From a virus (Duplodnaviria; Caudoviricetes), in IMG/VR virus record IMGVR_UViG_3300027741_000085, positions 1 to 54,249 of that record: 54,249 nucleotides of DNA; one strand, 5' to 3'. Under the pieces are notes generated by a model. The model was not told the origin of the DNA. It worked only from the letters and a program-made list of their open reading frames with translations, and made no database searches. The position numbers and the translations under genes were made by a program. Shown here one piece after another: positions 1-35,855 of this stretch (its first letter is position 1; each line of letters starts with the position of its first letter).

Positions 1-229
1 CGTTATGCCTGTCTTTGGCAGCCACAGCCAAGCCGAGCATGTAGTGGTCTTCGAGGCCCTCACGGACTCCGAGTTTGGGGGCCTTTCGTAGTCCGTGACC
101 CACTTCCCACCCAATCCGCCAAGCCGATTCGATGAATGGATTGCCCTTTGGAAATTCGGGGTGCGCATCGGCATAACTAGCGGTTGCAGGCAACCCCTCT
201 ATGCTATCTGTCGGTGGATTCGTCTTCAT
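1..229 (-). CDS. Cassette-borne hypothetical protein, truncated at the window edge (MKTNPPTDSIEGLPATASYADAH...KDRHN)
   Basis: Manual translation. The ATG lies in the loop of attC A1 and the frame stays open to position 1, ending at GGCATAAC, the start of the next attC. Confidence 0.65.
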   Translation of the reverse strand, partial: MKTNPPTDSIEGLPATASYADAHPEFPKGNPFIESAWRIGWEVGHGLRKAPKLGVREGLEDHYMLGLAVAAKDRHN

Positions 230-262
230 GGCTTCGTGGTTGCCTGACCCTTATCGTTCTAA
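171..262 (-). mobile_element. attC-like site A1
   Basis: Minus strand AAC-gataa-gggtcaggcaacc...ggttgcctgCaacc-gcta-GTTATGC: an imperfect inverted repeat with an extra C. Its arms are nearly the same as those of site C4. Confidence 0.85.
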
Positions 263-571
263 TCATTCATCGGGCATATTGGGTAGCCACATCCAATGCG
301 TGATATGGCAGTCGATTGCTTCGTCGCTATGCACGTCGATCCAGTCTTTTCCGTCCCATGACGCGACGTAGTGCGTGCCTTGGTCGGTGGCGAGCACTGG
401 CTCAGGATCAGGCGGGAGCCACGAATCGGAGTTTACCCATGTCGGCACATTGCGCTTTTCCGCCATCGCTATGATTTGATCATGGACGCGGTCAGGCATC
501 TGACCAGAACCATGCGGTGCAGCGCAACGGGCAGGGTCTTCGGTGGTTTGAATATCGTTCGCTTCGTTCAT
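263..571 (-). CDS. Cassette gene, DUF551-like protein
   Basis: W-x-P...VL...W...ITHWMWLPNMP motif typical of phage DUF551 proteins. Confidence 0.75.
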   Translation of the reverse strand: MNEANDIQTTEDPARCAAPHGSGQMPDRVHDQIIAMAEKRNVPTWVNSDSWLPPDPEPVLATDQGTHYVASWDGKDWIDVHSDEAIDCHITHWMWLPNMPDE

Positions 572-634
572 ATTTTTTGGTGGTTTAATTGTTGGTTGCG
601 GTCAGCCTGCCCGTTGCTGACCTGATCGTTCTGT
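504..634 (-). mobile_element. attC-like site A2
   Basis: AAC-gatcag-gtcagcaacgggcagg...cctgcccgttgcgctgCac-cgcatg-GTT on the minus strand. Confidence 0.85.
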
Positions 635-879
635 GAATAGATCGGCTCGCTCCACGTCCGCACAGGGAAGTGGATTCGCTCGCCGCCGAGTCCGTTCTTC
701 CGCAGGAGTGAGCAGACACCATCCGCTTGCTCCTTCGTGTCGTGTCGATCTCGGGTGGTGTTTTCGTGCCCCTCGTAGGAGAAGCTAAGCAGGTCGTCAG
801 GCCATTGAGCGCACGAGTTCCATGCGATCACAGAACACGGCACTGGTGGCAACGGAAGGGGATTCTCTGGAGTATCCAT
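568..879 (-). CDS. Cassette gene, hypothetical protein (probable start MDTPENP at 879)
   Basis: The ATG lies in the loop of attC A3. The stop overlaps the next ATG (ATGA) inside attC A2. Confidence 0.7.
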   Translation of the reverse strand: MDTPENPLPLPPVPCSVIAWNSCAQWPDDLLSFSYEGHENTTRDRHDTKEQADGVCSLLRKNGLGGERIHFPVRTWSEPIYSQNDQVSNGQADRNQQLNHQKI

Positions 880-959
880 ATCAGTCTTGATTTGAGTGTT
901 GAGCGGCTTCGTCGGAGCGCATCGCCGCCCCTTCCGTCGCCACAGTTTTGACGTTCTCT
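830..959 (-). mobile_element. attC-like site A3
   Basis: AAC-gtcaaa-actgtggcgacggaaggg...cccttccgttgccacCagt-gccgt-GTT on the minus strand. Confidence 0.85.
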
Positions 960-1246
960 CAACTGAACATAGCGGCATGTTTGATCGCTACGCATGATGA
1001 GCAAACATAGTATTCAGCCTCTTGTGTGCCGCCCTCATAGGCTCCAACTATTTGCACCCATATCAGTTCACCTTCTTTTGCGTCGGAACACACATCGCAG
1101 TCACGCGGATCTTTTGCCCAGAAGTCGCAGCACTCTAGCCCCATCTGGTCAGCCATCTGGTCAACCGTCAGAGAACACGGCACTGCATCCGACACGCAAA
1201 GCGGCGGTGGCGGTTCCGCGGGCGGAGTATGCGCGATCTCACTCAT
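959..1246 (-). CDS. Cassette gene, small Cys-rich (CxxC...CxxC) protein
   Basis: ORF track; CDVC and CSSC motifs; start lies inside attC A4. Confidence 0.7.
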   Translation of the reverse strand: MSEIAHTPPAEPPPPLCVSDAVPCSLTVDQMADQMGLECCDFWAKDPRDCDVCSDAKEGELIWVQIVGAYEGGTQEAEYYVCSSCVAIKHAAMFS

Positions 1247-1279
1247 GATTCGGCGTGCGTATGAGTTTGATCGTTACAT
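1170..1279 (-). mobile_element. attC-like site A4 (outer boundary of array A)
   Basis: AAC-gatcaa-actcatacgcacgc...gcgtgTcggatgCagt-gccgt-GTT, with two extrahelical bases (T and C). Confidence 0.85.
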
Positions 1280-1755
1280 AGTTGACTAATTTTCACAGCC
1301 CAGCCTTCCGTTTGCTTCTGAGCAAATCGCCATGTCCACATGGGGAATGCGCTGACGGCTTCTTTGTATGCGCGCAGGGTGTGTCCGTTGTGGATACGGG
1401 GGCCTTTGACTTCACAGAGGCACACAATTTCTGCGCCTCGCAGGACGACTAAATCAGGGGTGTAACGGGTGCCGCTGGGGAGATGTAAGGTGAAGGGTTC
1501 AAAAAGCACGAGGCAACTTTGATGTTCAGCGATAAGAAACCGCTGATATTCTTGCTCTCCTTGGTTCATCTTCCGGGGGCGGGGCATCCGAATCTGGGGC
1601 GCGCTAGTGGCGGGTTGAACCAAGCCGTTCGTGCGAACGAACTCAGCGGCTTTCACGCCTTTGGGAAGCTGGATCGTGCTGCCAGACGGCAAGTTCATGA
1701 ACGCCCGGTATTCCTTCGCGGTCATCTGCATCTGAGCTGGAGAAAGGGTGCTCAT
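1243..1755 (-). CDS. PD-(D/E)XK endonuclease (phage resolvase / DUF1064-like)
   Basis: YTPDL...EVKG motif; the C-terminal tail is encoded by attC A4. Confidence 0.75.
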   Translation of the reverse strand: MSTLSPAQMQMTAKEYRAFMNLPSGSTIQLPKGVKAAEFVRTNGLVQPATSAPQIRMPRPRKMNQGEQEYQRFLIAEHQSCLVLFEPFTLHLPSGTRYTPDLVVLRGAEIVCLCEVKGPRIHNGHTLRAYKEAVSAFPMWTWRFAQKQTEGWAVKISQLCNDQTHTHAES

Positions 1756-1811
1756 ACGTAAGAGAATGCTTTTTGCTTGTGAAAGCGGGCGTTCTCGGGT
1801 TTACTAAGGGT

Positions 1812-3458: not shown

Positions 3459-3500
3459 TAATTAGTCAACCATCCATTCAACCACCCTCCACTCCACTCC

Positions 3501-3785: not shown

Positions 3786-4151
3786 ATGAGCCTAACCACT
3801 CTTAGCCCTCAGATGCTCAGCGCTATCGCTGGGCAACGGGAAAAACTCATTGTCATTCAGGTGCAGGCGGACCATGCGCCGCAGCCGGAATGGATTACGC
3901 CCCCTGCCCGCAGTGTGCCAGGGAAACCGCCGGTGCGCTGTCCTTACACGGGGCTATCCCGCAGCACGCTCTTAGATCTGATCATTGAGAGCATAGGAAC
4001 AGAACACGAGGTCGTTATCAAACATCGGCGCAAAGCCGGCGCTGATAAAGGCGTCATCCTCATTCACTACCCCAGCCTGAATGCCTACCTTCATTCCCTA
4101 CCTGCGTGGAAAGAAGCCAAGGTGCTGGAAACAGCAGAGCAGGATAATTAG
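3786..4151 (+). CDS. AlpA/excisionase-like DNA-binding protein
   Basis: CPYTGLSRSTLLDLI...GVILIHYPSLNAYL resembles wHTH directionality-factor proteins. Confidence 0.6.
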   Translation: MSLTTLSPQMLSAIAGQREKLIVIQVQADHAPQPEWITPPARSVPGKPPVRCPYTGLSRSTLLDLIIESIGTEHEVVIKHRRKAGADKGVILIHYPSLNAYLHSLPAWKEAKVLETAEQDN

Positions 4152-4188
4152 TCAACCATTAGTAAACATAACACTCCACTCCAAAACC

Positions 4189-5455: not shown

Positions 5456-5872
5456 ATGAAAAGCATCTCCTTTGCCCTCACTGTTCCGCAGTTTCAAGAT
5501 CGTAGTAAATCGGTGACTCGTCGCCTTGCCTGGGATTCGCTCGTCGAAGCCTGCGCCCGTGGTGCGAAACCTATCCTTCGCGCCTGCGAGAAGTGTCAGG
5601 GCTTGAAGAAGGGAGAGAAAGCCGTGGTGCTGGGTTACATCCGTGTCGTGAGCGCACGGAAAGAACAGCTCAGTAAGATGCTGGACAATCCCGACTATGG
5701 CCGCCGGGAAGTGATCAAGGAAGGATTCCCAGAAATGGCTCCCGAGGAGTTCGTGGATTTCTTCGTGAAATCCCATCCCGACAAAGCGAACCCGACCACG
5801 AAGAAGACTTTTGTGACGCGGATTCAGTTTGAATACCTGAGTGAAGCCGAAGCGGCGGCGTTAGAGAATTAG
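5456..5872 (+). CDS. ASCH/PUA-like domain protein
   Basis: ISFALT..QF...KSVTRRL.W...EGFP...FVDFF...VTRIQFEY is typical of phage ASCH proteins. Confidence 0.8.
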   Translation: MKSISFALTVPQFQDRSKSVTRRLAWDSLVEACARGAKPILRACEKCQGLKKGEKAVVLGYIRVVSARKEQLSKMLDNPDYGRREVIKEGFPEMAPEEFVDFFVKSHPDKANPTTKKTFVTRIQFEYLSEAEAAALEN

Positions 5873-5895
5873 TCAACCATCCACCCCTCCATCCC

Positions 5896-6376: not shown

Positions 6377-6477
6377 CCTACGGTTCCATTTGCAGCGGCA
6401 TCGAAGCCGCTACCACCGCTTGGCATTCGCTGGGCTGGAAGCCTGCATTCGTGGATTCACTACCCCTTACGAATTAG
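6373..6477 (+). pseudogene. 34-aa N-terminal remnant of a phage C5-cytosine DNA methyltransferase
   Basis: MTYGSICSGIEAATTAWHSLGWKPAF matches the motif-I region of phage Dcm proteins, then stops. Confidence 0.75.
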
Positions 6478-6534
6478 TCAACCATATCCCGCCCTCCTGA
6501 CTACTGGCTTCTGTCTTCTCACTCTTTCCTCCCC

Positions 6535-8390: not shown

Positions 8391-8606
8391 ATGAACAGTA
8401 AAACCGCTAAACTCATCCGTCGCTTTTCTCATGAAGGCGAACGAAGATTCGACCCAAACATTCGCGCTCATTATTTAGCAGCGAAACGAGGCTGGAACCG
8501 CACACCCCGCGCGCAACGGAAACTTATCCGCCAGGATATGAAAACCGTGGTGCGGCATCGGGTGCCATCGGCTACTTTAACCTCAGTTCCGGCGACAGAG
8601 AATTAG
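8391..8606 (+). CDS. Hypothetical basic protein
   Basis: ORF track. Confidence 0.6.
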   Translation: MNSKTAKLIRRFSHEGERRFDPNIRAHYLAAKRGWNRTPRAQRKLIRQDMKTVVRHRVPSATLTSVPATEN

Positions 8607-8632
8607 TCAACCATCCGCCCTTTCTTCTCCTC

Positions 8633-9172
8633 ATGAGCACCATGCATTTATCTAAATCCGAGATGCCGCCGATCCCATCGGCTCCACCGGACCCGATCTT
8701 GCTTGGCGCTCGTGGGGATCGGAGGTTAAATTACAACAGCGCCACGGGGCGGCGCTTGTTCCACCAGTCCCACATGCCGCTGGGTCGGCACGCGGGAAAG
8801 ATCATGGAGCGAGTGCCGGCGGCTTATCTGGTGGAGTTCTACGACTGCCGTTATGCGGAAATGAGCACGCAGCAACGCAAGGACTGGTATCCCGTCTGGT
8901 GCTACTGTGATACGCACATCAAAGACCTTCGCTGCCGTGTGGAAACCGAACTCGTCTTAACCGACCTGAAACCTAAGCTACCCAGAGAATACACCCTACG
9001 CCTGAAATGCACTCTCATCAGCTTAACCGCGGCAGCTACCAGCCAGTCTCCGCACCACAAGTGCGAAATCTGCCACGATATAGCGGGTGTGAAATGTGAC
9101 TGTGACCCTGTTTTGAAAAACAAACGGAATATGAGCCGCGCCAGTTATGTAAAGAGGAAAGGAATTTTATAA
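8633..9172 (+). CDS. Hypothetical protein with a DUF3820-like motif
   Basis: MPLGRHAGKIMERVPAAYL resembles MPFGKYKG...VP..YL. Confidence 0.6.
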   Translation: MSTMHLSKSEMPPIPSAPPDPILLGARGDRRLNYNSATGRRLFHQSHMPLGRHAGKIMERVPAAYLVEFYDCRYAEMSTQQRKDWYPVWCYCDTHIKDLRCRVETELVLTDLKPKLPREYTLRLKCTLISLTAAATSQSPHHKCEICHDIAGVKCDCDPVLKNKRNMSRASYVKRKGIL

Positions 9173-9195
9173 CGACAAGGTGAGCGCGCGCCTGA

Positions 9196-9489
9196 CAGCG
9201 CCGCTCCGAATCGGAAAGAAACTCCATAAGCAAAAAGAAAGCATCAACGTCACATCGGAAGTCGCAATCGGGTAAAGTCTCTGACAAAATTGCCCGCCAC
9301 TTTTTTCAACGCTTCGACAATGGAAGCGACACATGCAAGCGGCTCGCTGCTCGTGGCGGGCGATGGCCGGACAAAGAAACCGACCTCGGTGGAGTCTGTG
9401 AATCCGCCTTCGCATCAATAATTGAGGACGCACTCAATGCGCTGAACGACCAAACTCTGCCGACCGAAGGGGCGGCGAAAAAGCCATGA
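9196..9489 (+). pseudogene. Decayed cassette gene (no start codon; its attC has only the left arm)
   Basis: Frame ...KIARHFFQRFDNGSDTCKRLAARGGRWPDKETDLGGVCESAFASIIEDALNALNDQTLPTEGAAKKP* ends inside attC B1. AAC-gacaag-gtgagc at 9171 has no matching right arm. Confidence 0.5.
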
Positions 9490-9542
9490 AATCACGAAAG
9501 ACTACATCCGCCCCGAAGGTTGGCAGCAGTGCCTTGTTCGGC
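9441..9542 (+). mobile_element. attC-like site B1
   Basis: AAC-gaccaa-actctgccgacc...ggttggcagCagt-gcctt-GTTCGGC. Confidence 0.85.
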
Positions 9543-9806
9543 ACTTGGTCGCCGCCAGACACGGCCCCGAGAAACGGCACGCTCATCCTCGGAGACTTTG
9601 GATGGCCATGGCCGCTGCTTGCGGTCTGGGATGAGTATGATGAGCAATGGGTGACGGCCACCCTGCAAGCCTGCCCGATGGAGAATGGGAAGAAGAACTC
9701 ATACCTTGAAACTGACACGGAAAAGGGCAGCGCATTGAAGCGATGGACTCCGCTACCGCTGCTGCCGAACGTCTCGGATCAGGCGACGGCGAGGAGGAAG
9801 CAATGA
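9486..9806 (+). CDS. Cassette gene, DUF551-like protein
   Basis: WSPPDTAPRNGTLIL...W...WTPLP motif; starts in B1 and stops in B2. Confidence 0.75.
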   Translation: MKSRKTTSAPKVGSSALFGTWSPPDTAPRNGTLILGDFGWPWPLLAVWDEYDEQWVTATLQACPMENGKKNSYLETDTEKGSALKRWTPLPLLPNVSDQATARRKQ

Positions 9807-9855
9807 AGACACGACAGACTAAATCGAGCCGTTGCCTGCATCCGATTTGTTCGGT
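9764..9855 (+). mobile_element. attC-like site B2
   Basis: AAC-gtct-cggatcaggcgacggc...gccgttgcctgCatccg-attt-GTTCGGT. Confidence 0.85.
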
Positions 9856-10087
9856 CTTGTTGGCGTGTCCATTTTGCGGCGGCAAAGCAAAACGTGGCCG
9901 CAAGGCGATAGGCTTCGACACCATCGCTGATATCGTGCGTTGCGGTGCGGTGCGTTGCCCTGTGCATCCAGAAACAACACCGTGCGACCATCGCGGAATA
10001 CTGCGAGGCAAACGAGGCGCGGCGGAAGTGTGGAACCATAGACCGAACGTCGGCGGTGAGGCGACGGCGAGCGAGGCGCACCGCTGA
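9803..10087 (+). CDS. Cassette gene, Lar (restriction alleviation)-like zinc ribbon protein
   Basis: LLACPFCGG...C..C...AAEVWNHR pattern of the Lar family; the ATG overlaps the previous stop. Confidence 0.7.
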   Translation: MKTRQTKSSRCLHPICSVLLACPFCGGKAKRGRKAIGFDTIADIVRCGAVRCPVHPETTPCDHRGILRGKRGAAEVWNHRPNVGGEATASEAHR

Positions 10088-10134
10088 CACGACAAAATTT
10101 TTACGAGCCGTTGCCTCCACTGCTCTTGTTAGAC
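10042..10134 (+). mobile_element. attC-like site B3
   Basis: AAC-gtcggc-ggtgaggcgacggc...gccgttgcctcCact-gctctt-GTTAGAC. Confidence 0.85.
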
Positions 10135-10312
10135 CCAACGAACCACAAATATGCACTCCTGCCCTGAATGCGGACAAGCCTGTTATTGCAATGGCGACAT
10201 CGACGACATTGACGCAAACGCGATGGATGGACCACCGTTCTGCGAACACCCATGTATTGAGCCAGAGAAAGATGATCGCTGGCCTGATGACCCACCAGAA
10301 GTGAAGTCTAAC
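10046..10312 (+). repeat. 264-bp cassette, copy 1 (copy 2 at 35493-35759)
   Basis: Identical apart from two substitutions seen; identity starts and ends at the AAC boxes. Confidence 0.95.
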
Positions 10313-10321
10313 AGTGATTAG
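10151..10321 (+). CDS. Cassette gene, small acidic Cys-rich protein (MHSCPECGQACYC...)
   Basis: Manual translation; duplicate of 35598-35792. Confidence 0.7.
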   Translation: MHSCPECGQACYCNGDIDDIDANAMDGPPFCEHPCIEPEKDDRWPDDPPEVKSNSD

Positions 10322-10343
10322 CCTACCACCCGTTAGCATAATG
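10310..10343 (-). mobile_element. attI-like terminal site of array B
   Basis: 33 of 34 bp identical to 36066-36099; no hairpin; minus strand reads ...GGCTAATCACT-GTT. Confidence 0.6.
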
Positions 10344-10363
10344 GTTTTCCGTTGTAATATTGC

Positions 10364-10612
10364 ATGATGCATTCACCATCAGGAATAGAGGTTGCAGTTT
10401 GCCAAGATATTGCGGAGCGTCAGCAAAAGGGTATCGCTAAATATGGCGTGACGGTGGCGGATAATCCGCTGGAATTGCGGGACTGGCTCCAACACGCCTA
10501 CGAGGAGACTTTAGACAAAGCTGTTTATCTGAAACGAGCTATCGCGGAAATGGATAGGGCGAATCAAAACCCATCGCTAACACTTCCCCCACTGCTACCG
10601 AAGTCTGAATAG
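10364..10612 (+). CDS. Conserved phage protein, possibly MazG-like helical
   Basis: RQQKGIAKYG...WLQHAYEETLDKAVYL. Confidence 0.7.
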   Translation: MMHSPSGIEVAVCQDIAERQQKGIAKYGVTVADNPLELRDWLQHAYEETLDKAVYLKRAIAEMDRANQNPSLTLPPLLPKSE

Positions 10613-12396
10613 GAAGTGACGCCTGCGCCGATGGGTCCTTGATAAAGGGTAGCCGAGGGGAGACACTTGATACCGATGGCGCTACTCATAACCCAATCGT
10701 CATGCCAACCGGCTGCGGCTTCGAGTTTGCCGTCCACGTTCTGAAACACGCGGAGTTCGTGGCGGGTGCGCTCACAGGGGATGCTGATTTCTTCTTCACG
10801 CACGAGACGGGCGACGACATCTATCATGTCCCGCTTGTTGTTGGCAGTGGTAAGCCAGCCGGGGATGCGAATGATTTTCCCCTGCCCTACAGGTTTGGTT
10901 TCGTCCGCGCGGCGTCGGCACCAAAGAGGCACGCCACGGCGTCGAAGCATCTCAATGATGCCGTGCATGTTGTTGACCTCCGGGGCGCAGACGCAGTTCC
11001 CATACTCACGGGACATGAGGCTAATCCAGTCACAAAGCACATCCAAGTCCACCCGACAATCTGGCGGGATGGCTGCGACTTGTTTGACAGGCCAGTAAGA
11101 ACCTTCTGAATCCGTGTAAGCATCCCGCCACACACTGACGGCGTGGCAGTCAGGTTCACCCCGACTGCCTGCGGCTTGTTCTCCCGTCATGAAGTCGGCG
11201 CTGATGAGGTAGCGACAGCCGATGCGGGGCGGCTCCCACACGCGGAGCCAAGCATCCGAACGGGCGCAGGGCTGAAATACGGGCGGGCGCATCTCATTGA
11301 GCTGCACTTGTCCATCACGGTTTAGCTGCTCACTTTCCAGCGTGCCCCAAAGCGTTTGCTGGGTGATGGCCATGGTGTCCAGGGTATCAAGGCCATCGAG
11401 GTCAAAGCGATTGTTTCCCGTGCCCCTGAAACAAGTGATGTCATCTGAGGGATATTCGACATCGAAACGCCGTGGATCTCCGCCTGATCGAGGATCTGAA
11501 ATCACGTCACGCCGCCACTGAAGATGTGCGGCGCTGATCTTCCAGTGATTCCCATATTTGGCCATCAAGCGCGATTCCCACTCGTCCAAGGAGTTCATGA
11601 GGGCTTCGCCTTCTGTAGCGGTCATCTTGCGCAGCGGTTTGGAGTCTTCAAAACCAAACCATGGATAGAAGACTTTCACGTAGCCATTGCCACGCTTGCC
11701 CGCTTTGAACTCGTCGAACGTGATCGCACCGTTGTAGGTTTCGTAGTAGACGCCTTGCTGTCCGTTCGCGGTGCTCTCAATGATCACGCAGGTATTTGGC
11801 AGGTCCGGCACACAGTTTAGGAGCGACTGGAATACAGCCTCGCCCGTGGCCTTGCCGCTGGGTCGGTAGTAGGCGGCTTCAGAAGCGAGAACAAACTGGA
11901 ACGTCCCGCCCATCCCGGCGCGTGGATCGTTCGCGGTTTCTTCGTAGAGCTTGCTGCCGTGGCTGAAGCCCATGCCGTCTTTGTCCGGGGTATTCCCCCA
12001 ATTCCATCGGTCGTTATCTGTGTAGCGATGGAAGATTTCCATCAGTTTACCCGTGGTATTTTTATCGTCACCAAGAATGCCGCCTGTGCAACAGAAGTTC
12101 CGCAAGTGCGTGTAAAGCAGGGCAAGCGAGATGGTGGAAGATCCTTTCTGCCGTGGCTTCAAGATGACGATGCGGCAGGGCTGCCCCGTCTCAATGCAGT
12201 ATTTATAGATGTCTACGACCTGACGCTGGAATTCGTTGAGGCGCAGTTCAGGGAACTTCACCAGTCGCCCGCCCTTGTCCTGAATGGCCCCCTCCATCTG
12301 AAGCCAAACGGCAGGATTCCCGCGCACCTCCATCTGGGCCTCAAGGCGAGCGATGGCGTCCGCTGCCTTGGTCTTGGGGGAAGCGATGGCGACCAT
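10564..12396 (-). CDS. terL: Terminase large subunit
   Basis: ILKPRQKGSST Walker A, LASEAAYY Walker B, IESTANG motif and C-terminal nuclease HDDWVMS. Confidence 0.9.
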   Translation of the reverse strand: MVAIASPKTKAADAIARLEAQMEVRGNPAVWLQMEGAIQDKGGRLVKFPELRLNEFQRQVVDIYKYCIETGQPCRIVILKPRQKGSSTISLALLYTHLRNFCCTGGILGDDKNTTGKLMEIFHRYTDNDRWNWGNTPDKDGMGFSHGSKLYEETANDPRAGMGGTFQFVLASEAAYYRPSGKATGEAVFQSLLNCVPDLPNTCVIIESTANGQQGVYYETYNGAITFDEFKAGKRGNGYVKVFYPWFGFEDSKPLRKMTATEGEALMNSLDEWESRLMAKYGNHWKISAAHLQWRRDVISDPRSGGDPRRFDVEYPSDDITCFRGTGNNRFDLDGLDTLDTMAITQQTLWGTLESEQLNRDGQVQLNEMRPPVFQPCARSDAWLRVWEPPRIGCRYLISADFMTGEQAAGSRGEPDCHAVSVWRDAYTDSEGSYWPVKQVAAIPPDCRVDLDVLCDWISLMSREYGNCVCAPEVNNMHGIIEMLRRRGVPLWCRRRADETKPVGQGKIIRIPGWLTTANNKRDMIDVVARLVREEEISIPCERTRHELRVFQNVDGKLEAAAGWHDDWVMSSAIGIKCLPSATLYQGPIGAGVTSYSDFGSSGGSVSDGF

Positions 12397-12413
12397 GGTA
12401 ACAAATGAGCGGT

Positions 12414-12728
12414 TTAACCCCAATCATCATCTGCGGGCGGGCCATCATCGTGGCCGCCGCTTTTGTCTTGTCGTTTTTGGACAACATCGAAAAGCTTCAC
12501 CCGCGCGGAACTGCTGCCCTTGTCCGCCATGGCTTTAGCGAGCATAAAAAGGGCGGGATGGAGAATGTCCAAATTGAACTTCAACTCGAGCCACTTGTTC
12601 CCATCGTTGTTGTTTTCGTGCTCCAGTAAAACACCGATGTCTCGGTATTCGACGGTAGGTTTGTCCTTTCCTTGCTGCTGGTAGGAACCGACGGGAAGAC
12701 AGGCGCGTTTAATGATGCGGGTGCTCAT
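12414..12728 (-). CDS. Putative ssDNA-binding protein
   Basis: Beta-rich, with YRDIGVL and an acidic C-terminal tail DDDWG. Confidence 0.5.
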   Translation of the reverse strand: MSTRIIKRACLPVGSYQQQGKDKPTVEYRDIGVLLEHENNNDGNKWLELKFNLDILHPALFMLAKAMADKGSSSARVKLFDVVQKRQDKSGGHDDGPPADDDWG

Positions 12729-13054
12729 GAGGGTGGTAGTAGGCGTTGATCACAATGAGGGCCTCCGTAGTAGGAGGTGAAATTATCAAGTCGCCATGGC
12801 TCTAGGTGCTCGCGGTAGCGCAGGCATTTGTCTCTGATTGAGCACTGGTTATTCACGCAAAGCGGGGACTCGTCCGGTAAGGCGTCCGATGGCACACGGA
12901 AAACCATTGCCTGAAGCAAGCAGCCGTTGTTATTGACGGGACCGCCCACGACTTCACAGTCCCAACGGTCCAGCAGGGTATTGACCCGTGCTTGCAATCC
13001 GTTCGGCGTGGATGACGTAATGAGGGCGTAGCGTTGTTGGCGTAGGGTGCTCAT
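12725..13054 (-). CDS. Hypothetical protein (DUF1737-like N-terminus, Cys-rich C-terminus)
   Basis: LQARVN.LL..W...GGP...QAMV pattern. Confidence 0.55.
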   Translation of the reverse strand: MSTLRQQRYALITSSTPNGLQARVNTLLDRWDCEVVGGPVNNNGCLLQAMVFRVPSDALPDESPLCVNNQCSIRDKCLRYREHLEPWRLDNFTSYYGGPHCDQRLLPPS

Positions 13055-13067
13055 GAGAATTAGTCGT

Positions 13068-13667
13068 CTAAGCACGTCCACTTGCGCGAAGTTGAGCAAG
13101 TTTCGCGGCGGCCTCATCCAGTGGGGTGAAGTCATCTTTTCCACCGACTTCGACACGATCCCGGTATTTGTTGGGGAGTCGGCCCTTTAGCATAAGGGCA
13201 AGCAGGGTATCGCTGTATTCGCGCCCCTCTTCGAGAAGCTGGCCTTCTTTGCCAAATTTGGCGTAGGGGACACCTTCGACAGCGCGTATATACGCGGCAT
13301 CTTCTAGGGCATCACTGCCTTCCGTAAAGGCTTCATCCCATTCTCGGGCGAAATTCGGGTATTGTTTGTAATGATTGTAGGCTGTCTGGTAGGAAATGCC
13401 CGCTTTCTTGGTGGCTCCACGGACGGTGCGGCCTTCGCTCAAGGCCTCGATAAAGAGTGGATGCCAGGACGTAACGTGATGCACGCCCCGTCTGCCGTTC
13501 CCTCGCTTGACAGGTTGGACGGCTTTACGCGTGGAGCGTGCTTGAGACGCTGGAGGCGTTTTCGATTTGGGTGGGAGAGCCGCTTTAGATTTGGATTTGC
13601 CGGAACCCTTCTGAGCGGCTCCCGCCTGCTTGGATGGTTTCTTCATGGCTTTGGAGGATGCGGACAA
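13068..13667 (-). CDS. terS: Terminase small subunit
   Basis: HTH followed by FAREWDEA...LE....RAVEG...YSDTLL..MLK....KYRD; upstream of terL. Confidence 0.8.
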   Translation of the reverse strand: MSASSKAMKKPSKQAGAAQKGSGKSKSKAALPPKSKTPPASQARSTRKAVQPVKRGNGRRGVHHVTSWHPLFIEALSEGRTVRGATKKAGISYQTAYNHYKQYPNFAREWDEAFTEGSDALEDAAYIRAVEGVPYAKFGKEGQLLEEGREYSDTLLALMLKGRLPNKYRDRVEVGGKDDFTPLDEAAAKLAQLRASGRA

Positions 13668-27158: not shown

Positions 27159-27925
27159 GTGACGGCTATTCGAGTGTAGAAGCCTGGCGACAAGCGGAGC
27201 AAGCGCCTTTTTTCATGGCCCCGAATCAGCGCCAAAAAGGCTTTGGTTCGCGGGTGTTTTTGCAAGCACAGACGCCGCAGGATGAATACCCCTTGGATGG
27301 GTGGGGTAACCCAGGCATTCCGGGTAAAGATGGCGTGTCAAGCAGTGGTGTGGATGGACTACCCGGAAAAGACGGAGTAGACGGAGCAGACGGGACGCCT
27401 TCCACGGTAGCAGGTCCAATGGGTCCACCGGGTTTAGCAGGCGCAAACGGAGCCGATGGCAACCCTTCTACGGTAGCTGGCCCCCCTGGAGATGCTGGTT
27501 CTCCAGGAACTCCTGGGAATCCATCAACAGTGCCGGGACCGCCCGGACCGCCCGGACCACCGGGAGCTCCTGGAAGTGATGGCGGACCCCCAGGCCCCCC
27601 AGGTTCACCTGGAGGCCCAGGAAGTGACGGAAGTCCTGGCGGCGCTGGTAGCCCAGGAAGTCCTGGCGGCGCTGGTAGCCCGGGAAGTCCCGGAGCGCCC
27701 GGAATAGACGGCACGGATGGAAGAGACGGCACGGATGGAAGAGACGGTGTAGGTGTGCCTTCCGGTGGCCATACCGGCCAAGTTTTACGCAAACTTGATG
27801 AATCTCCTTACACATCCGTTTGGGATGAATTGGGTAAAACTATCAACGTGGCAGTGCTCGCCAACGATGGGGTTACAACCATTATTCTACATTTTACCAA
27901 CGGCCTTTTAACCTCAACCTCATAA
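27155..27925 (+). CDS. Collagen-like fibre protein
   Basis: Long interrupted Gly-X-Y repeats, including GPP runs. Confidence 0.9.
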   Translation: MSDGYSSVEAWRQAEQAPFFMAPNQRQKGFGSRVFLQAQTPQDEYPLDGWGNPGIPGKDGVSSSGVDGLPGKDGVDGADGTPSTVAGPMGPPGLAGANGADGNPSTVAGPPGDAGSPGTPGNPSTVPGPPGPPGPPGAPGSDGGPPGPPGSPGGPGSDGSPGGAGSPGSPGGAGSPGSPGAPGIDGTDGRDGTDGRDGVGVPSGGHTGQVLRKLDESPYTSVWDELGKTINVAVLANDGVTTIILHFTNGLLTSTS

Positions 27926-28535: not shown

Positions 28536-28670
28536 ATGAAAACCCTCGATCATCTCGACTGGCAACAGATCATCAGCATAGAGCCTGACGGGGAAGACGA
28601 ATGCGTGTGTATCGAAGTCACTCACCCTAGCAAGTGCTACATCACGGATGACGGGATCGTGACACACAAC
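28536..28670 (+). other. Orphan intein C-terminal fragment (IntC, 45 aa)
   Basis: Blocks F and G ending in HN, followed by Thr+1, directly after the start Met. Confidence 0.8.
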
Positions 28671-31600
28671 ACGACGGTGAACACCCCATCTTTGCAAATG
28701 GGGGCTGCACAGGAGAATCCAAATGCTGCATTGCAGGATAAAGCTATTCGTGGTATAGATGAGGCACTCTATGGAGACTCCCGCAAAGAAAATCAGCAAC
28801 GGAGGCGTGGTCACACCGGAAACGATGCCCGATCTTTTAGCCGCGCCGCGCTCCAAGACGAACGCCGAAATAAGGGCGCAGGCGGAGCGCGCGAGGAGCT
28901 GGCGCGCGACACAGGCGCAACGCGAAGAGAAGAAGCCGCTCGTCTCGTAGATTACGCACGGGATAACGGCTTCCTCATTGAGAAGATGCCGGAGCAATGG
29001 AAGCCCTACGCCGAGGGTGATGTGGGCGGACAAGAGCACCATGTGTGGATTCCAGAACAAGGAGCGCGGGTTATCAAGCTTACAACGCTGAGCAAACGCG
29101 GTGCCGACATTTTTGGTATGAACCCTGTGCCCTATCAAGGGAAGTGGGACTTGGACACGAAGGGAGCGACCGCTTACCGCTATCTTCAGCGTCTCGAAGA
29201 CGGAAACCAGACTTTCGGGGATGATCACATTGTGCATGGTGTCTGGAATGATCGTGGAGATGTCCACCTTCTTACGAGTCAGCGGGCCTATGATGGGGAA
29301 CTGCCTAGCAATCTTCCCGAGGGACTCGCAGCAGCCGAAGAAGCGGCGGAGAGCGACCGACGCACGCAAGATGTTGCCGAGGCGTTTGCTAAACAAGGCT
29401 TTGTCGCTCTAGATAACCGCACCTATTACCGTCCTTCCGACAATACAGCCGTCTTTGATGCCCACTTAGCAAACGTCATGTGGGTTACTGGAAAAAGCGG
29501 AGTGCGTCGCCTAGTTCCCTTTGATGTCACGACCATGCATCCCGTGGGCAAGCTCAAGGAGAATTTAGCTCAAGCAGCGCAGGCTGTTGCCGAACCCCAA
29601 CGTCTCTACATGGCCGCCGCACAAGCTGCGGATGAACTCGCCCGTATCAATCGCGAAGCTGGCGCCGCCCGCGTGATCAAGGATGAACTTGAGGAAAAGG
29701 GCCAGCCGGCGAAGCAAATGACCGGAGTGAAGGAGTCGGCAGCCGCCGCTCTGCGTGGCATCTTTGCTGGGAAGTTTGATAAGATGGAAGCCGCCGCCCG
29801 TGGTCTTGGTGACTTGGTGCGCGGGAATGACATTGAACAGCACTTCTCGGAAGCCGCGCTCAATGACTACATGGATAAGGTGCGCCAGTCGGTAAAGGAA
29901 AGCTTCGGCTCGCCTTCCTACTGGCATAACCGACAGAACCGGAAACGTCTCCAGCGCTTCAGTGATACCTTGCTGCCTGTCGCGGCGCGCTTGAATGCCA
30001 CGGGGATTGATCCAACGGGCTTCACGTTCTCCGACTTCGACATGCGCGTGGGCACGATCTTTGAAAGTGACCTCAAGAAAATGAACGCTAAGCCGGGTGA
30101 CATGATCCCGTGGAAGGGCGCGAGTGGCATGATGGAAATGCTCAAGGTAGGGCCGCTCATCATGGACCAAGGCGTGAACGCCCGTAGTTCCAAGAATGGG
30201 CGTTATACCCTGCTCCGCCACATGGCTGCGGATACTCAACAGATCATCTATGACCACTTCAAACAAGAATTCCCTGAAGGCGCGGCGTGGTTAGATCAAT
30301 GGATTGATCCCCTGCTACGGGATGCCACGCAGACGGGGCCGGGTAATGTGCAAGTGCCTGTGTTCAATCGCCACGCGCTGCTCAAGAGTTTTAATGACTG
30401 GTCGCCAGAACTGAAAGCGCTCTTTGGTAGTGAACCCCTGCCAGGCATCACCGGAATGGAAGGCTACACCCCGGACGTGATGGCGCAGAAGGGGCTGATT
30501 AACAGCATCGGTGCTGCCTTGAACGGCAATAGTTACCTGAATCGATTCATGTCCAGCGCTCGCAAATTCAAAGCGGGTGACTTACGCGAAGAGGGCAACG
30601 TCAAGAACCTTTTCGACGGCTTTACGCAGCGGGCCATGGAATCGCATCGTGAGAAGATTCGCCTCAAGACACGGCGCGACATCATTCAGAAAGCCGCCCG
30701 GCCAGCGAACAAGGTTCAACCGGAAGACTTGCGCTCTGGCTTGTTCATTCCCCTCGATGACACGTTCAAGAAGCTTTATGAGGCGCATGTGATCGCCTCT
30801 GGCCTTGATCGTGCGAAGTTCCCCGTGCTCACGCAATCTCTCAATCCTGACCAGAAGAGCGCCTTGCAAAAGCTCTTTGCTGATATGTATCAGCTCTATG
30901 GGAACGGCATGGTGATTCATCGCGATATTCACCGCCAGCTTGTGCTGGGTGCCGCCATGACCCAGACAGAGAATAGCCTCACTAAAGCGCTGTCATGGAT
31001 CATTGGACGACGTAACCGTAACGTTTTAGTAGAGTTGGGCACGTATGCCAATAATTGGAGAGGTAACTTTGTGCTGCAACCCGTGGAACTTATGAACCGG
31101 GTGAACCTTGCGATTGTGAACGGATTGACGGCTCCGTTCAGTAGCAAGGCCAAGGATGAAGGTGAACTAGCCGCTCGCCAAGTAGCTGAGCTCTTCAAGG
31201 GCTTCTTTGCTGATCGCCGTATCTTCGACCTCTGGACACTGAATAACGGTTTAGGGGCGGGGATTGGGAAGATTCGTCCATTTGTGCCGCAAGAAGTCTT
31301 TGGCGACGGTAGCAATCTTAGATATGACGAGGATTTTCGAGACAAAAGCGTGCTCGGTCATTTGAAAAACCTCGACGTAGGCGCGGCGTTCCTGCAAGGC
31401 ATCCGCTACGGGAACATCGATACACATCCAAAGATGAGTAACACGTATCGGCTTCTCCGGGCAGAAGCGGCGCATGTGGCCGCCCGTCAGAAGATTCCCA
31501 ACGCCAAGCGTGAAGCCTTCATCAATGATTGGATGCTGAACGCTCATAAGGATAATCCCCTTGCCTTCCTGCGAGCGTTCAAGGCTAGTCAATCCCGGTT

Positions 31601-33047
31601 CATGGACTATGAGAACGTCCCTTCGTGGATGGACCCTACGCAGTCGGCTTTGCCCCTGAATGCTAGTGACAACGCTCGTCATTGGGAAAAACTGCTAAAA
31701 AGCGCCACGTTCCCGTTCATCCGCTGGAACTACAACATGATGCGTCAAGTCTATCATCAGAGCTTTGGCGCGCTCATCAATGCCACGCAAGGCGCGCAAG
31801 AGGGCGACTGGAGCAAGGTGCGTTCTGAAGTGGCAAACCTCATGACGACGGCGGCTCTAACGGGTGTGGCTTCCTATCTTATTGGTGGTGGCGGTGGGGA
31901 TGATGACAAGGAGCTTTCTCTAGGCACAAATCAAGATGCTGAAGGTAAGTATCTGCCTAAACAACTGCGCAGTGGTAGCCGATTGAATTGGGCCTCTATT
32001 ATGCGTAGGCTTACGGGTAAGCCAGCTACAGATGACTATAGCGTTGAAGGTTTAGATCATAGTGCGAATGATTTATGGTATCGCTACAAACAAGACCCAT
32101 GGTTGCCTCAAGCCATCATCCTCGGTTTGCTTGCTCGAGGCCGTGCCGATGAAGCTTACAAAGCGGCTGGCGATCTGGGCACCGATTACTTTTTAAGTTT
32201 TGGTGTGATTGGGAATACTATTCCAGGTCTGCGCGCTGTTCTAAATCCTTATACGGCGGATCAGAACTATAGTTATGCAGCAACAGGCACCGCTATTGAT
32301 TTGGCCATCTCGCCGCTTGTGCCAACTCGGTTGATTCAACACATCAGTAAGATTATCGACCCTGTGACCCGACAGGAAGCACCGCGTGTGTTGCCTCGCA
32401 GTGAGGGCAAGACCAAGAAAGGCTGGGAGGATTATCAGCCTGGACCACTCGAAGCATTGAAGATGCGTATTCCAGGCATGAGCAAAGACTTGCCTGCTGC
32501 TGGCACTCTTACACAGGGGGAAGCGGGGAACTTTGATCCTGAAGCATGGTTACGCAATAAGACCAGCACGCTACGCACCCAGCTTAATAAAGGACTGATC
32601 ACGAAAGAGCAGTTCCGCCAAGCCGCCGGCGATGCCGTCAACCAAGCCAAGGAACTTGCCGCCAACAAGCTGAGCCCTCCCCAAGTAGAGAAGCTCTATG
32701 CCGACATGGGCATTAATCAGACTCCCGATGATAAAAAGCGGGTGAGCGGCGTTCCCATGATTCCTGAACTGCGCACGCTTCAGGATCTCGGCGTAGGCAA
32801 GGAGAGCGTGAGAACCTACGTCAGCAAAGATAGCAAAGGCCGTGATGTAACCAAAATTACCGCGCCAAGCCCTGATACAATAACTGTCGCCGATCCGCGC
32901 TTAGAAATCCTTAAAGCACTTACAGGAATTAACGTATCTTTGATCCCCACAGGGCGCGTGAAAGCTGCCGTTCAAAAAGGCGATTTCTACAAGACCCCGT
33001 GGAAACCTAAGCAGGCGTTGACGGGTAAGGATTGGTTCAAGAAGTAA
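28536..33047 (+). CDS. Giant polyvalent virion protein: N-terminal intein C-fragment, PolyVal-type kinase and large C-terminal region
   Basis: CVCIEV...YITDDGIVTHN/T at residues 1-46; GGQEH.VW...RVIK...DAHLANV...PFD kinase-like motifs; C-terminal region paralogous to the 4450-aa protein. Confidence 0.8.
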   Translation: MKTLDHLDWQQIISIEPDGEDECVCIEVTHPSKCYITDDGIVTHNTTVNTPSLQMGAAQENPNAALQDKAIRGIDEALYGDSRKENQQRRRGHTGNDARSFSRAALQDERRNKGAGGAREELARDTGATRREEAARLVDYARDNGFLIEKMPEQWKPYAEGDVGGQEHHVWIPEQGARVIKLTTLSKRGADIFGMNPVPYQGKWDLDTKGATAYRYLQRLEDGNQTFGDDHIVHGVWNDRGDVHLLTSQRAYDGELPSNLPEGLAAAEEAAESDRRTQDVAEAFAKQGFVALDNRTYYRPSDNTAVFDAHLANVMWVTGKSGVRRLVPFDVTTMHPVGKLKENLAQAAQAVAEPQRLYMAAAQAADELARINREAGAARVIKDELEEKGQPAKQMTGVKESAAAALRGIFAGKFDKMEAAARGLGDLVRGNDIEQHFSEAALNDYMDKVRQSVKESFGSPSYWHNRQNRKRLQRFSDTLLPVAARLNATGIDPTGFTFSDFDMRVGTIFESDLKKMNAKPGDMIPWKGASGMMEMLKVGPLIMDQGVNARSSKNGRYTLLRHMAADTQQIIYDHFKQEFPEGAAWLDQWIDPLLRDATQTGPGNVQVPVFNRHALLKSFNDWSPELKALFGSEPLPGITGMEGYTPDVMAQKGLINSIGAALNGNSYLNRFMSSARKFKAGDLREEGNVKNLFDGFTQRAMESHREKIRLKTRRDIIQKAARPANKVQPEDLRSGLFIPLDDTFKKLYEAHVIASGLDRAKFPVLTQSLNPDQKSALQKLFADMYQLYGNGMVIHRDIHRQLVLGAAMTQTENSLTKALSWIIGRRNRNVLVELGTYANNWRGNFVLQPVELMNRVNLAIVNGLTAPFSSKAKDEGELAARQVAELFKGFFADRRIFDLWTLNNGLGAGIGKIRPFVPQEVFGDGSNLRYDEDFRDKSVLGHLKNLDVGAAFLQGIRYGNIDTHPKMSNTYRLLRAEAAHVAARQKIPNAKREAFINDWMLNAHKDNPLAFLRAFKASQSRFMDYENVPSWMDPTQSALPLNASDNARHWEKLLKSATFPFIRWNYNMMRQVYHQSFGALINATQGAQEGDWSKVRSEVANLMTTAALTGVASYLIGGGGGDDDKELSLGTNQDAEGKYLPKQLRSGSRLNWASIMRRLTGKPATDDYSVEGLDHSANDLWYRYKQDPWLPQAIILGLLARGRADEAYKAAGDLGTDYFLSFGVIGNTIPGLRAVLNPYTADQNYSYAATGTAIDLAISPLVPTRLIQHISKIIDPVTRQEAPRVLPRSEGKTKKGWEDYQPGPLEALKMRIPGMSKDLPAAGTLTQGEAGNFDPEAWLRNKTSTLRTQLNKGLITKEQFRQAAGDAVNQAKELAANKLSPPQVEKLYADMGINQTPDDKKRVSGVPMIPELRTLQDLGVGKESVRTYVSKDSKGRDVTKITAPSPDTITVADPRLEILKALTGINVSLIPTGRVKAAVQKGDFYKTPWKPKQALTGKDWFKK

Positions 33048-34559: not shown

Positions 34560-34945
34560 TTAGGAACGTTCGCATCAGCGATGGCGGAAGTCCCTGCTCT
34601 GTTGACCAGCAGCAGGCTTGTTCGGCTTGTGTGCTGATTCACGATCTGCATTTGCGACTGAGCGCCTTGGAGGCGGCCCATCACCGTCTTGTGTGGAAGG
34701 TGGCAGAAGCGACCAAATGGGAACCGCAAGGCTGCGATGACCAGCCAGTGGGAATAGCTGAATCGTTCTGCCAAAACTGTCGGACGTGCCACTATCCGCT
34801 GTCCGGCTGCCCTGGTGATGGCGGCCCTACGGGACCAGAACCAAATGGAGCAGATGGGCCTGTCGGAATGCCTGGCCCGCGTGGACCAAATGCAGACGGA
34901 GCGCCTAGAGAAACGGAAGAAGAGCACAGGCAACGCCTGAGCTGA
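34556..34945 (+). CDS. Cassette-like gene with Cys motifs and a short Gly-X-Y segment
   Basis: ATGA coupling; spans degenerate attC C1; stops inside attC C2. Confidence 0.55.
   Translation: MIRNVRISDGGSPCSVDQQQACSACVLIHDLHLRLSALEAAHHRLVWKVAEATKWEPQGCDDQPVGIAESFCQNCRTCHYPLSGCPGDGGPTGPEPNGADGPVGMPGPRGPNADGAPRETEEEHRQRLS
34561..34626 (+). mobile_element. Degenerate or chimeric attC-like site C1
   Basis: GAAC-gttcgc-atcagc left arm; short hairpin cctgctctg/cagCagcagg followed by GTTCGGC; the outer arms do not match. Confidence 0.45.
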
Positions 34946-34992
34946 GGCACACAGCCTTGCGGGCTGTGTTGGCCTCCGGCGCTGTGTTCCCC
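34928..34992 (+). mobile_element. attC-like site C2
   Basis: AAC-gcctga-gctgaggcacacagcc...ggctgtgttggcctcCggc-gctgt-GTTCCCC. Confidence 0.85.
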
Positions 34993-35033
34993 TGCGTTCC
35001 GACTGACCTACAAAAGATTTCTAAAAATATCGC

Positions 35034-35097: not shown

Positions 35098-35304
35098 ATG
35101 AACACAGTCACACTCCACGTATTCACCAACGAAGCAGACATCGAAGCCGACTCTGATAAAGACACCGCTTTTACGCGGTGGAACGAAAACTTCAGCGATC
35201 CTTACACGCGCTATTTCACGATAGCCATTGAGGTTCCTGCTGTGGTGTCGCAAGCAAAAATTGTGCTACCAGTTGAGCCTACTCCAAGCGTCACCTTCGC
35301 ATGA
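35098..35304 (+). CDS. Cassette gene, small acidic protein
   Basis: ATG after the promoter; coupled to the HTH gene. Confidence 0.65.
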   Translation: MNTVTLHVFTNEADIEADSDKDTAFTRWNENFSDPYTRYFTIAIEVPAVVSQAKIVLPVEPTPSVTFA

Positions 35305-35534
35305 TTTTTGCTCAACAACTCCGAGCCGCCGCTGGCGACCTGACCGCACGGCAGGTCGCCTTTGCGGTGTCTCCGCTCCTGAGCGTCCGCACGGTAGAGG
35401 ACTGGCTCGCGGCCAGACGGACGCCACCGGACTGGACGCACGCATGGATTCTGAAAAACGTCGGAAGTCCAAAGAATCCCCGCAAGCGGGGGAACGTCGG
35501 CGGTGAGGCGACGGCGAGCGAGGCGCACCGCTGA
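35301..35534 (+). CDS. Cassette gene, XRE-like HTH protein
   Basis: LT.RQ.A....LLSVRTVEDW...RRTPP. Confidence 0.75.
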   Translation: MIFAQQLRAAAGDLTARQVAFAVSPLLSVRTVEDWLAARRTPPDWTHAWILKNVGSPKNPRKRGNVGGEATASEAHR

Positions 35535-35581
35535 CACGACAAAATTTTTACGAGCCGTTGCCTCCACTGCTCTTGTTAGAC
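35489..35581 (+). mobile_element. attC-like site C3 (same as B3)
   Basis: Identical to 10046-10134 from the AAC onward. Confidence 0.85.
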
Positions 35582-35597
35582 CCAACGAACCACAAAT

Positions 35598-35792: not shown

Positions 35793-35855
35793 AGACGAAG
35801 CTACCAGACAAGGCGCACCAAAGCGACGGGGGTTGCCTGCAACCTGTGGTTATGC
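35753..35855 (+). mobile_element. attC-like site C4
   Basis: GTCTAAC-ggtca-gggtcaggcaacc...ggttgcctgCaacc-tgtg-GTTATGC. Confidence 0.85.

Follow-up and report, generated by a model that had tools for sequence, protein, structure and literature searches.

The viral record IMGVR_UViG_3300027741_000085 (Duplodnaviria; Caudoviricetes) is contained completely in the stretch of DNA analyzed here (54,249 bases, below called the window); it is classed as linear and has a completeness rating of 69%. The window encodes an SU10-type portal, large and small terminase subunits, a replication initiator and a DnaC-like loader, as well as a tyrosine integrase and an HNH endonuclease, and it represents a phage record that holds three arrays of integron-type gene cassettes. 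The region 9441-10321 is a run of small plus-strand genes with replication genes on one side and the terminase on the other. The repeats under study are 90-125 nt long and are located at 9441-10343, at 35486-36099 and, on the minus strand, at 168-1277. In this work we show that they belong to a family of integron attC sites and that the reading frames of the phage genes run through them.

Every copy of the repeat begins with (G/T)AACG, ends with GTT(C/A) and contains a long imperfect hairpin in between. A gapped pattern of the inner stem was matched by 45 stretches in viral contigs, and an alignment of 45 sites gave a consensus hairpin with covariation (RNAalifold). The covariance model R1 was built from this alignment, that is, from the studied sites themselves. 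In the window it recovered E2, E3, E3', E7, E4, E1, E8 and E6, with scores from 94 down to 22 bits. The first array (repeats at 9441-10343) is listed here with its neighboring features, with R1 scores in bits and z-scores (z) of the predicted folds:

9196-9489, plus strand: open frame of 97 codons without an ATG, GTG or TTG start; AAC 9445-9447 read as Asn, in phase into E1
9487-9489, plus strand: stop TGA of this open frame, overlapping the next ATG
9438-9545, plus strand: attC E1, a long imperfect hairpin from AAC to GTT; AAC 9445-9447; 37.5 bits, E-value 7.6e-9
9486-9806, plus strand: cassette gene, 106 aa, no family; start in the E1 loop; AAC 9768 read as Asn
9761-9857, plus strand: attC E2; AAC 9768-9770; 94.1 bits; z -3.25
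9803-10087, plus strand: cassette gene for a Lar-like restriction-alleviation protein, 94 aa; PF14354 29 bits, cut-off 28.6
10039-10136, plus strand: attC E3; AAC 10046-10048; stop 10085-10087; 77.5 bits
10151-10321, plus strand: cassette gene, 56 aa, Cys-rich, copy 1 of a duplicated gene; AAC 10310 read as Asn
10310-10343, plus strand: array-terminal box T1; AAC followed by AGTGATTAGCCTACCACCCGTTAGCATAATG; no fold

Folded as single-stranded DNA (ssDNA), E1 gives -18.5 kcal/mol (z -2.59). E2 forms a 5-bp R box (GAACG/TGTTC), a 2x2 unpaired spacer (internal loop) and a 17-bp stem with a single bulged C on the 3' arm, i.e., the arm opposite AAC, closed by a 37-nt loop containing GGAGGAAGCAATGA. 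The cassette genes end inside these elements: gene 9486-9806 terminates with NVSDQATARRKQ and a stop within E2, the tail NVGGEATASEAHR and stop of the Lar-like protein (9803-10087) are encoded by E3, and gene 10151-10321 terminates with NSD and a stop within T1. The E3 stop at 10085 lacks an ATG (GCTGA), and the next gene starts 64 nt further, at 10151.

The stop of gene 8633-9172 shares letters with a TAAC at 9171, a candidate decayed attC. It should also be mentioned that in the metagenome run X2 the contig depth over 9815-9915 is 58.6 versus about 3 on both flanks. This freshwater metagenome contains the 3' half of E2-type attC in many repeats, which would be expected from an abundance of host integron arrays.

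The second array (repeats at 35486-36099) is followed directly by the tyrosine integrase gene:

35301-35534, plus strand: gene with a weak helix-turn-helix (HTH) match, 77 aa; PF13560 16.9 bits, below the cut-off of 27; tail NVGGEATASEAHR and stop from E3'
35486-35583, plus strand: attC E3', duplicate of E3; AAC 35493-35495; 74.8 bits
35598-35792, plus strand: copy 2 of the duplicated Cys-rich gene; tail NGQGQATSEAK and stop from E4; ATGA overlap 35789-35792
35750-35858, plus strand: attC E4; AAC 35757-35759; 51 bits; z -3.30
35789-36067, plus strand: cassette gene, 92 aa, no family; ends with a TAA of its own that overlaps AAC 36066-36068
36066-36099, plus strand: array-terminal box T2; AAC and then ACTGATTAGCC; integrase start 62 nt further on
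36128-37285, plus strand: tyrosine integrase; PF00589 66.7 bits

An element 91.5% identical to E4 across 106 nt was found in the otherwise unrelated viral contig L002, the only one of the 10 loci from a 16-nt word scan of viral contigs to contain the element. Two weak matches to the attC model lie just upstream of this array (34580-34628 and 34925-34995, E-values 0.15 and 0.29).

The third array (repeats at 168-1277) is on the minus strand and is listed with its neighboring features:

168-265, minus strand: attC E7; AAC 258-256; 64.4 bits
263-571, minus strand: cassette gene, 102 aa, weak DUF551 match; start in an ATGA overlap in the E6 loop
501-637, minus strand: attC E6; AAC 630-628; 21.6 bits, E-value 0.00036; z -1.45
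568-978, minus strand: cassette gene, longest open reading frame (ORF) 136 aa (internal ATG starts possible); AAC 630 read as Asn; tail NDQVSNGQADRNQQLNHQKI and stop
827-962, minus strand: attC E8; AAC 955-953; 32.2 bits; z -3.49
959-1246, minus strand: cassette gene, 95 aa; its homologues are cassettes of viral loci L013 (79% aa identity) and L038 (77%)
1160-1277, minus strand: decayed attC E5; AAC 1275-1273; only 7.3 bits, E-value 6; z +0.28
1243-1755, minus strand: gene, 170 aa, weak AHJR-like nuclease match; start in the ATGA overlap 1752-1755
1690-1796, minus strand: candidate attC E9; AAC 1793-1791; z -2.17; upstream ORF doubtful

At E7 and E8 the upstream gene stops 7 nt and 6 nt ahead of AAC, respectively, and the gene that follows E7 runs from 201 off the start of the record. 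In the decayed E5 the AAC is still in frame, giving the tail NDQTHTHAES and a stop with the ATGA overlap 1243-1246. E9, which was missed by R1 in the window scan, has a 9-bp R-box pairing (GAACGCCCG/CGGGCGTTC). The record itself starts exactly at a GTT box (AAC on the minus strand; window 1-9), with a minus-strand cassette gene running off, and an attC at the contig end was also seen in several fetched loci; assemblies seem to break in attC repeats.

The hairpins of the window are conserved in structure. E1, E2, E4 and E8 have folds with z from -2.6 to -3.5, while E5 has no such fold, and the inner arms differ in a compensatory way (CAGGC.../...GCCTG in E2, GAGGC.../...GCCTC in E3, CTGCC.../...GGCAG in E1). 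The reading frame across the 3' arm is not the same in E1 as in E8/E5; conservation therefore acts at the nucleic-acid level, and conservation of the repeats at the protein level is ruled out. Taken alone, CCGAACGTC and CGAGCCGTTGCCT are no more frequent in the window than expected by chance; the signal is the whole element.

All five ATGA stop/start overlaps listed in the initial annotation are present (568-571 and 1243-1246 on the minus strand; 9486-9489, 9803-9806 and 35789-35792), and a further one occurs at 1752-1755 on the minus strand. The same annotation had counted nine genes or remnants in which AAC is read in frame as Asn. We found this in 9 of the 12 tabulated junctions (9445, 9768, 10046, 10310, 35493 and 35757; 630, 1275 and 1793 on the minus strand), whereas in the other three the upstream gene's own stop overlaps or just precedes AAC (36066; 258 and 955 on the minus strand). 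A thirteenth AAC junction, also in phase 0, lies at the extreme start of the record.

The exchange of C-terminal tails, likewise noticed from the letters alone, is explained by a 271-nt duplication in which 10045-10315 corresponds to 35492-35762 with 99% identity. It starts at an AAC that two unrelated genes have within their 3' ends, which gives the same C-terminus, NVGGEATASEAHR, to the Lar-like protein (9803-10087) and to the HTH protein (35301-35534); it ends at the following AAC, so that the tail of the duplicated Cys-rich gene is NSD in the first array and NGQGQATSEAK in the second.

To see these regularities in a larger sample we used 46 viral loci, in which R1 gave 143 matches, or 123 once opposite-strand echoes were dropped; many of these sites are arrayed, with up to nine sites spaced by 250-800 nt. 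The sample was baited by a single inner-stem sequence and de-duplicated by exact sequence only. In the tabulation of AAC phase that had been proposed as a check, 116 viral sites gave 64, 1 and 0 clear cases of read-through by the upstream gene in phases 0, 1 and 2, which is not random, whereas the same script gave 16, 14 and 18 for 137 bacterial sites of the same family. Among the remaining viral sites, 19 had a stop before or overlapping AAC, 19 were ambiguous, 10 had no AAC and three had no ORF. An earlier version of the script had given 70/2/1. A stop in phase 0 within the site was found in 100 of 103 viral and 114 of 119 bacterial sites, and each of the other two phases contained a stop in 43 of the 103 viral sites. 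The ATGA overlaps were also tabulated: the phase-0 stop is part of one in 55/100 viral versus 31/114 bacterial sites, and the start so formed opens an ORF of at least 60 aa, or one running off the locus, in 40/55 versus 7/31 cases. The proposal that attC sites supply start codons held in part: the hairpin contains the first in-frame ATG in 37 of 72 clear viral cases, but this is not universal. On the whole, the fixed frame first seen in the window holds in the larger sample.

Identification of the repeats as attC, which the initial annotation had taken as given, is borne out by members of the same family found in cassette arrays beside integron integrases, both in Verrucomicrobiota genomes and in three viral records, and further by stem covariation and by cassette homology that breaks at AAC. 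The gapped pattern matched at least 120 stretches in bacterial genomes, and among the matches listed 67 of 80 are of Verrucomicrobiota lineage; this phylum is the likely host of the phage. An integron integrase above the curated cut-off of 265 bits is encoded in three of five such bacterial genomes (394.9, 342.3 and 289.5 bits). In L188, sites at 8128, 8794 and 11314 (plus strand) lie upstream of and co-directional with intI (12289-13290, plus strand), and the first cassette is filled by a 202-aa ORF on the other strand. A Verrucomicrobiaceae contig (L134, 1-8000) carries 13 near-identical attC sites spaced by 380-1,200 nt, i.e., a large chromosomal integron array; its cassettes are mostly without assignable function, with one solid Pfam hit (CARDB) among 10 ORFs.

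In the viral alignment all 14 modeled pairs show changes on both sides, and 94.9% of the pairing cells are compatible with pairing versus 75.3% after shuffling (0 of 500 shuffles reach the observed value) and 22-46% with the partners slid. AAC is present in 120 of 131 sites and GAAC...GTTC in 67 of 95 viral sites. The asymmetry of the bulge (C versus GC) across the 45-site alignment is also visible, as judged by eye. We conclude that the repeats are a structured attC family.

The bottom strand of attC is known to carry the cleaved AAC in R', and a skew of G:T pairs has been reported for attC bottom strands (PMC5027507). R1 models the sense strand of the phage genes, and under the usual integron geometry this corresponds to the bottom strand of attC. 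The modeled strand is the more stable one as ssDNA in 113/118 bacterial and 66/95 viral sites, and bacterial sites have 1.88 G:T pairs on it versus 0.74 on the other strand.

Comparison between loci places the cassette boundaries at the same triplet. In counts in which reciprocal pairs are entered twice, homology begins at -1 to +2 of AAC in 8/8 events and ends at +2 to +5 of AAC in 14/22. Whole cassettes are common to different arrays (L013 and L038, L031 and L049, and the window's own duplication), and a 1,537-nt match between L017 and L026 (99%) halts exactly at AAC. In the independent metagenome run X4 a contig holds 9764-10051, i.e., E2 and the Lar-like gene, with 1 of 288 letters different and foreign flanks; a different attC follows the gene there, so the protein would get another tail. 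No joints were seen in the metagenome-run contigs compared with the window, and regions of it uncovered in X2-X4 carry no weight. The boundary falls at AAC, a cut between A and C being finer than sequence can resolve. Linkers for homologous recombination are ruled out by breakpoints at a 4-nt box, and IS200/IS605-type or repetitive extragenic palindromic (REP) elements were dropped given the IntI-linked arrays.

The two groups of arrays differ in the orientation of their genes. All cassette genes of the window are on the modeled (bottom) strand, i.e., they depart from the canonical top-strand gene with a stop before attC. The longer ORF lies opposite the modeled strand in 44/52 bacterial versus 8/68 viral intervals and on it in 0/52 versus 27/68, its strand being unclear in 8/52 and 33/68, respectively; the median share of the interval that is open on the modeled strand is 0.47 in bacteria and 0.97 in viruses. 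In 46 of 51 bacterial intervals the ORF stops outside the site; attC is therefore untranslated in bacterial arrays, as had been assumed for typical integrons. The minority of viral intervals with top-strand ORFs (8/68) includes L014 4394-4970, L045 3043-4086, L030 6254-6885 and L037 2956-3473, and such cassettes in phage arrays may be of the host type.

These comparisons define the organization of the phage arrays. The phage genes are inverted relative to host cassettes: they occupy the bottom strand, which is the folding strand with the cleaved 5'-AAC-3'. Each cassette begins with the C of an AAC, ends with the AA of the following one and has its own attC at the 5' end. The 5' arm of attC encodes a C-terminal tail of 10-20 residues and the stop of the upstream gene, the loop often supplies the start of the cassette's own gene, and the 3' arm always encodes its first residues. 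Since the crossover triplet is a whole Asn codon in one phase, any two cassettes join in frame.

The integrase of the window is not IntI: it scores 31.1 bits with TIGR02249 (cut-off 265), and a six-frame search of the window gave 18.7 and 14 bits. Only the catalytic motif aligns between it and the IntI of L191, and it has no relatives in the viral contigs. True IntI is encoded by viral record G018 (locus L191; rated 100% complete; 344 bits) and by L042 and L057 (344 and 341 bits; cut-off 265). In G018 and L042 the array is upstream of and co-directional with intI, and the cassette genes run towards it; the coordinates indicate the same layout for L057, which belongs to the same contig as L014. 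In both L191 and L042, ACTGATTATCC follows the final AAC ahead of intI, giving the junction AAC/ACTGATTA. Both plus-strand arrays of the window end with AAC and then A(G/C)TGATTAGCC, i.e., AAC/A(C/G)TGATTA, and the words at the beginning of T1 agree with the junction that directly precedes true intI in viral loci. The array-end box can accordingly be read as a putative attI-like site. It should be noted that this box is also similar to the ATTAGTCAACCATCC box described below.

Taken together, the data make it probable that these are inverted phage cassettes, moved by IntI, whose bottom-strand genes are translated through attC with a fixed Asn crossover, the frame being kept by translational coupling. 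An integron integrase would be what moves the cassettes, encoded by the phage itself in some relatives; for the window phage it would be supplied by the host or by the missing part of the record. A ribosome translating the upstream gene would open the hairpin and terminate beside the next start, and termination-reinitiation there would retain the frame. Every inserted cassette would in this way stay expressed inside the phage operon. We infer from the sequence patterns that the fixed frame may serve translational coupling.

Several observations weigh against this interpretation. Of the 72 clear cases, 23 have their first in-frame ATG downstream of the hairpin, 11 have it further upstream and one has no start; a start inside attC is therefore common but not universal, and E3 has no ATG at its stop. 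A Shine-Dalgarno sequence was seen at 7/40 ATGA starts versus 0/29 window genes, which is uninformative. No RNA run was found to contain the stretch. Strand asymmetry is weak in viral sites (66/95; G:T pairs 1.24 versus 1.16). De-duplication by exact sequence only means that the counts are inflated by relatedness, and alignments A2 and A3 were fitted to the model, which favors it in the covariation count. No IntI was found in the window record, rated 69% complete, whose only tyrosine recombinase scores 31 bits versus the cut-off of 265. A search of 10 viral records with this model was likewise negative for nine, four of these nine being rated 93-100% complete, and PHROGs recognized replication genes but no virion genes in the IntI-bearing record G018. 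Terminase and portal homologues adjoin arrays in other viral loci.

The main rival explanation is that the frame lock only borrows a nearby stop codon and that coupling to the next gene plays no role. A stop is indeed present in phase 0 in 100/103 viral sites against 43/103 for each other phase, and bacterial sites of the family have it as well (114/119), with nothing reading it there; the E3 stop without a nearby ATG and the 23/72 downstream starts fit the same idea. Borrowing of stops does not, however, predict the doubled frequency of ATGA in phage (55/100 versus 31/114), nor that the phage ATGA starts are productive (long ORFs in 40/55 versus 7/31), and we consider it unlikely. Still less probable is that the attC sites are relics, either inherited or acquired a single time, and that the cassettes now move between phages by homologous or illegitimate recombination without an integron integrase. 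The lack of IntI in the window and in 9/10 viral records, the decay of E5 and of the site at 9171, and the greater diversity and lower asymmetry of viral compared with bacterial sites would agree with it, but the breakpoints coincide with a 4-nt box beyond which homology is lacking, a pattern that homologous recombination does not produce. Moreover, both plus-strand arrays close with attI-like words that adjoin true intI in relatives, compensatory changes maintain stem pairing, and host genomes carry IntI.

It is very improbable that the repeats are regulatory hairpins acting at the RNA level, or a REP-like or miniature inverted-repeat transposable element (MITE)-like repeat unrelated to integrons, or that the real genes are on the other strand, like those of canonical cassettes. 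The hairpins would form in mRNA too, with G:T becoming G:U, and many intervals are open on both strands (33/68 unclear); against this, the same family is arrayed beside IntI, the sense strand has the Lar family match and cassette homologues at the protein level, and the whole interval is open on the sense strand (median 0.97 versus 0.70). Genes on the other strand would leave the 64/1/0 phase split unexplained.

With translation through inverted cassettes as the preferred reading, a wider one can be put forward tentatively, though we regard it as somewhat doubtful: phage and host may use one integron recombination system with two cassette pools separated by strand, the Asn codon serving as a plug-in standard. 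If true, host cassettes would be top-strand and read from the cassette promoter (Pc), while phage cassettes would be bottom-strand and chained by translation through the hairpins; owing to the opposite coding strands, a cassette in the other party's array would be antisense and silent. IntI at the 3' end of the array operon, present in some phages, would then shuffle anti-defence and accessory genes whose frames are never broken.

The search for relatives of the window among named phages (DNA of 9000-11000) gave a single match of 185 nt in an Acidovorax phage. By tblastn, the window integrase and the genes flanking the arrays were found in none of the fetched loci, while some cassette genes were matched; none of the window cassettes was seen in the sampled bacterial loci.

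Other features of the window may be listed briefly. A repressor-like HTH protein adjoins a divergent gene pair at about 2750-2850. The box ATTAGTCAACCATCC is repeated at the ends of small plus-strand early genes, with eight matches versus 0.34 expected (3461-3475, 4147-4161, 5868-5882, 6473-6487 and 8602-8616; also listed for it are 13676, 37285, 38241, 39347 and 43488), and a related box, TTGTCAACTAAT, precedes later genes; the repeated box probably represents a phage promoter or regulatory site. The giant proteins encoded at 28536-33047 (1,503 aa) and 39382-52734 (4,450 aa) are paralogues that share seven blocks of 72-79% nucleotide identity over about 3 kb. A 27-nt tandem repeat at 27560-27688 codes for Gly/Pro-rich collagen-like units within a 256-aa gene. 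The HNH endonuclease gene (53219-53920, minus strand), with an N-terminal HTH (PHROGs, 92.6 bits), adjoins the end of the record.

In the usual view, an integron cassette is a promoterless gene followed by an untranslated recombination hairpin, and reversed cassettes are exceptions. In the whole set of phage arrays described here, the hairpins serve as coding sequence, their sense is reversed and the cut site keeps to a single codon phase. This offers a concrete rule by which gene order could be shuffled in a tight operon without loss of expression, and links the turnover of phage accessory genes to the integron machinery of an environmental phylum, Verrucomicrobiota. Several questions become testable: which strand is recombined by phage-borne IntI, whether mRNA hairpins enforce coupling, and whether phages and hosts exchange cassettes. 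For annotation, integron finders that assume top-strand genes will mis-call such arrays.

Shuffled small accessory genes of T4-type phages are flanked, as in the arrays described here, by repeated junctions that bear hairpins, the promoter early stem-loop (PeSL) cassettes. PeSLs are intergenic modules of promoter and terminator that are thought to act via homologous recombination; to our knowledge they are non-coding and have neither an AAC crossover nor a link to an integrase. In the full-text literature searched, we found no description of bottom-strand cassette genes read through attC in fixed phase, and none of such arrays in Verrucomicrobia phages.

The sedentary chromosomal integrons of Verrucomicrobiota share with the phage arrays the AAC/GTT R box, the unpaired spacer, the bulge opposite AAC and the variable loop (features as given in PMC5027507), as well as boundaries at AAC and a single small gene per cassette. 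They differ in that the gene is on the top strand (44/52) and stops before attC (46/51), whereas phage cassettes have a bottom-strand gene, an attC that precedes it on the 5' side and is translated on both arms, and a crossover codon of fixed phase.

That phages carry attC sites, arrays without integrase and sometimes intI, and that phage attC is recombined by IntI1 in an assay, has been reported in a study of 21 phages (Qi et al., 2023, PMC9892861), which describes cassettes in the bacterial orientation along with some divergent sites. Unlike our data, the parts of its main text compared here make no mention of attC read-through, a fixed AAC phase or Verrucomicrobia phages. One precedent for translation across a crossover is ORF-11/ORF-18 of attI1 in class 1 integrons, a short ORF whose in-phase stop comes from the core site carried by the inserted cassette and which drives translation of the next gene by termination-reinitiation (PMC8876359). 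That system has a single leader peptide, located at attI and on the top strand; in the phage every cassette gene and every attC are involved, on the bottom strand, and the borrowed sequence is the C-terminal tail of a real protein.

A synthetic attC embedded in protein-coding sequence has been made to work both as a recombination site and as coding sequence (Nivina et al., 2020, PMC7439510). Thus, phage attC clusters and integrons, and engineered coding attC, were already known, and reading through bottom-strand genes in fixed phase would be the new element; relative to that engineered proof of principle, the phage arrays would be the natural and systematic counterpart.

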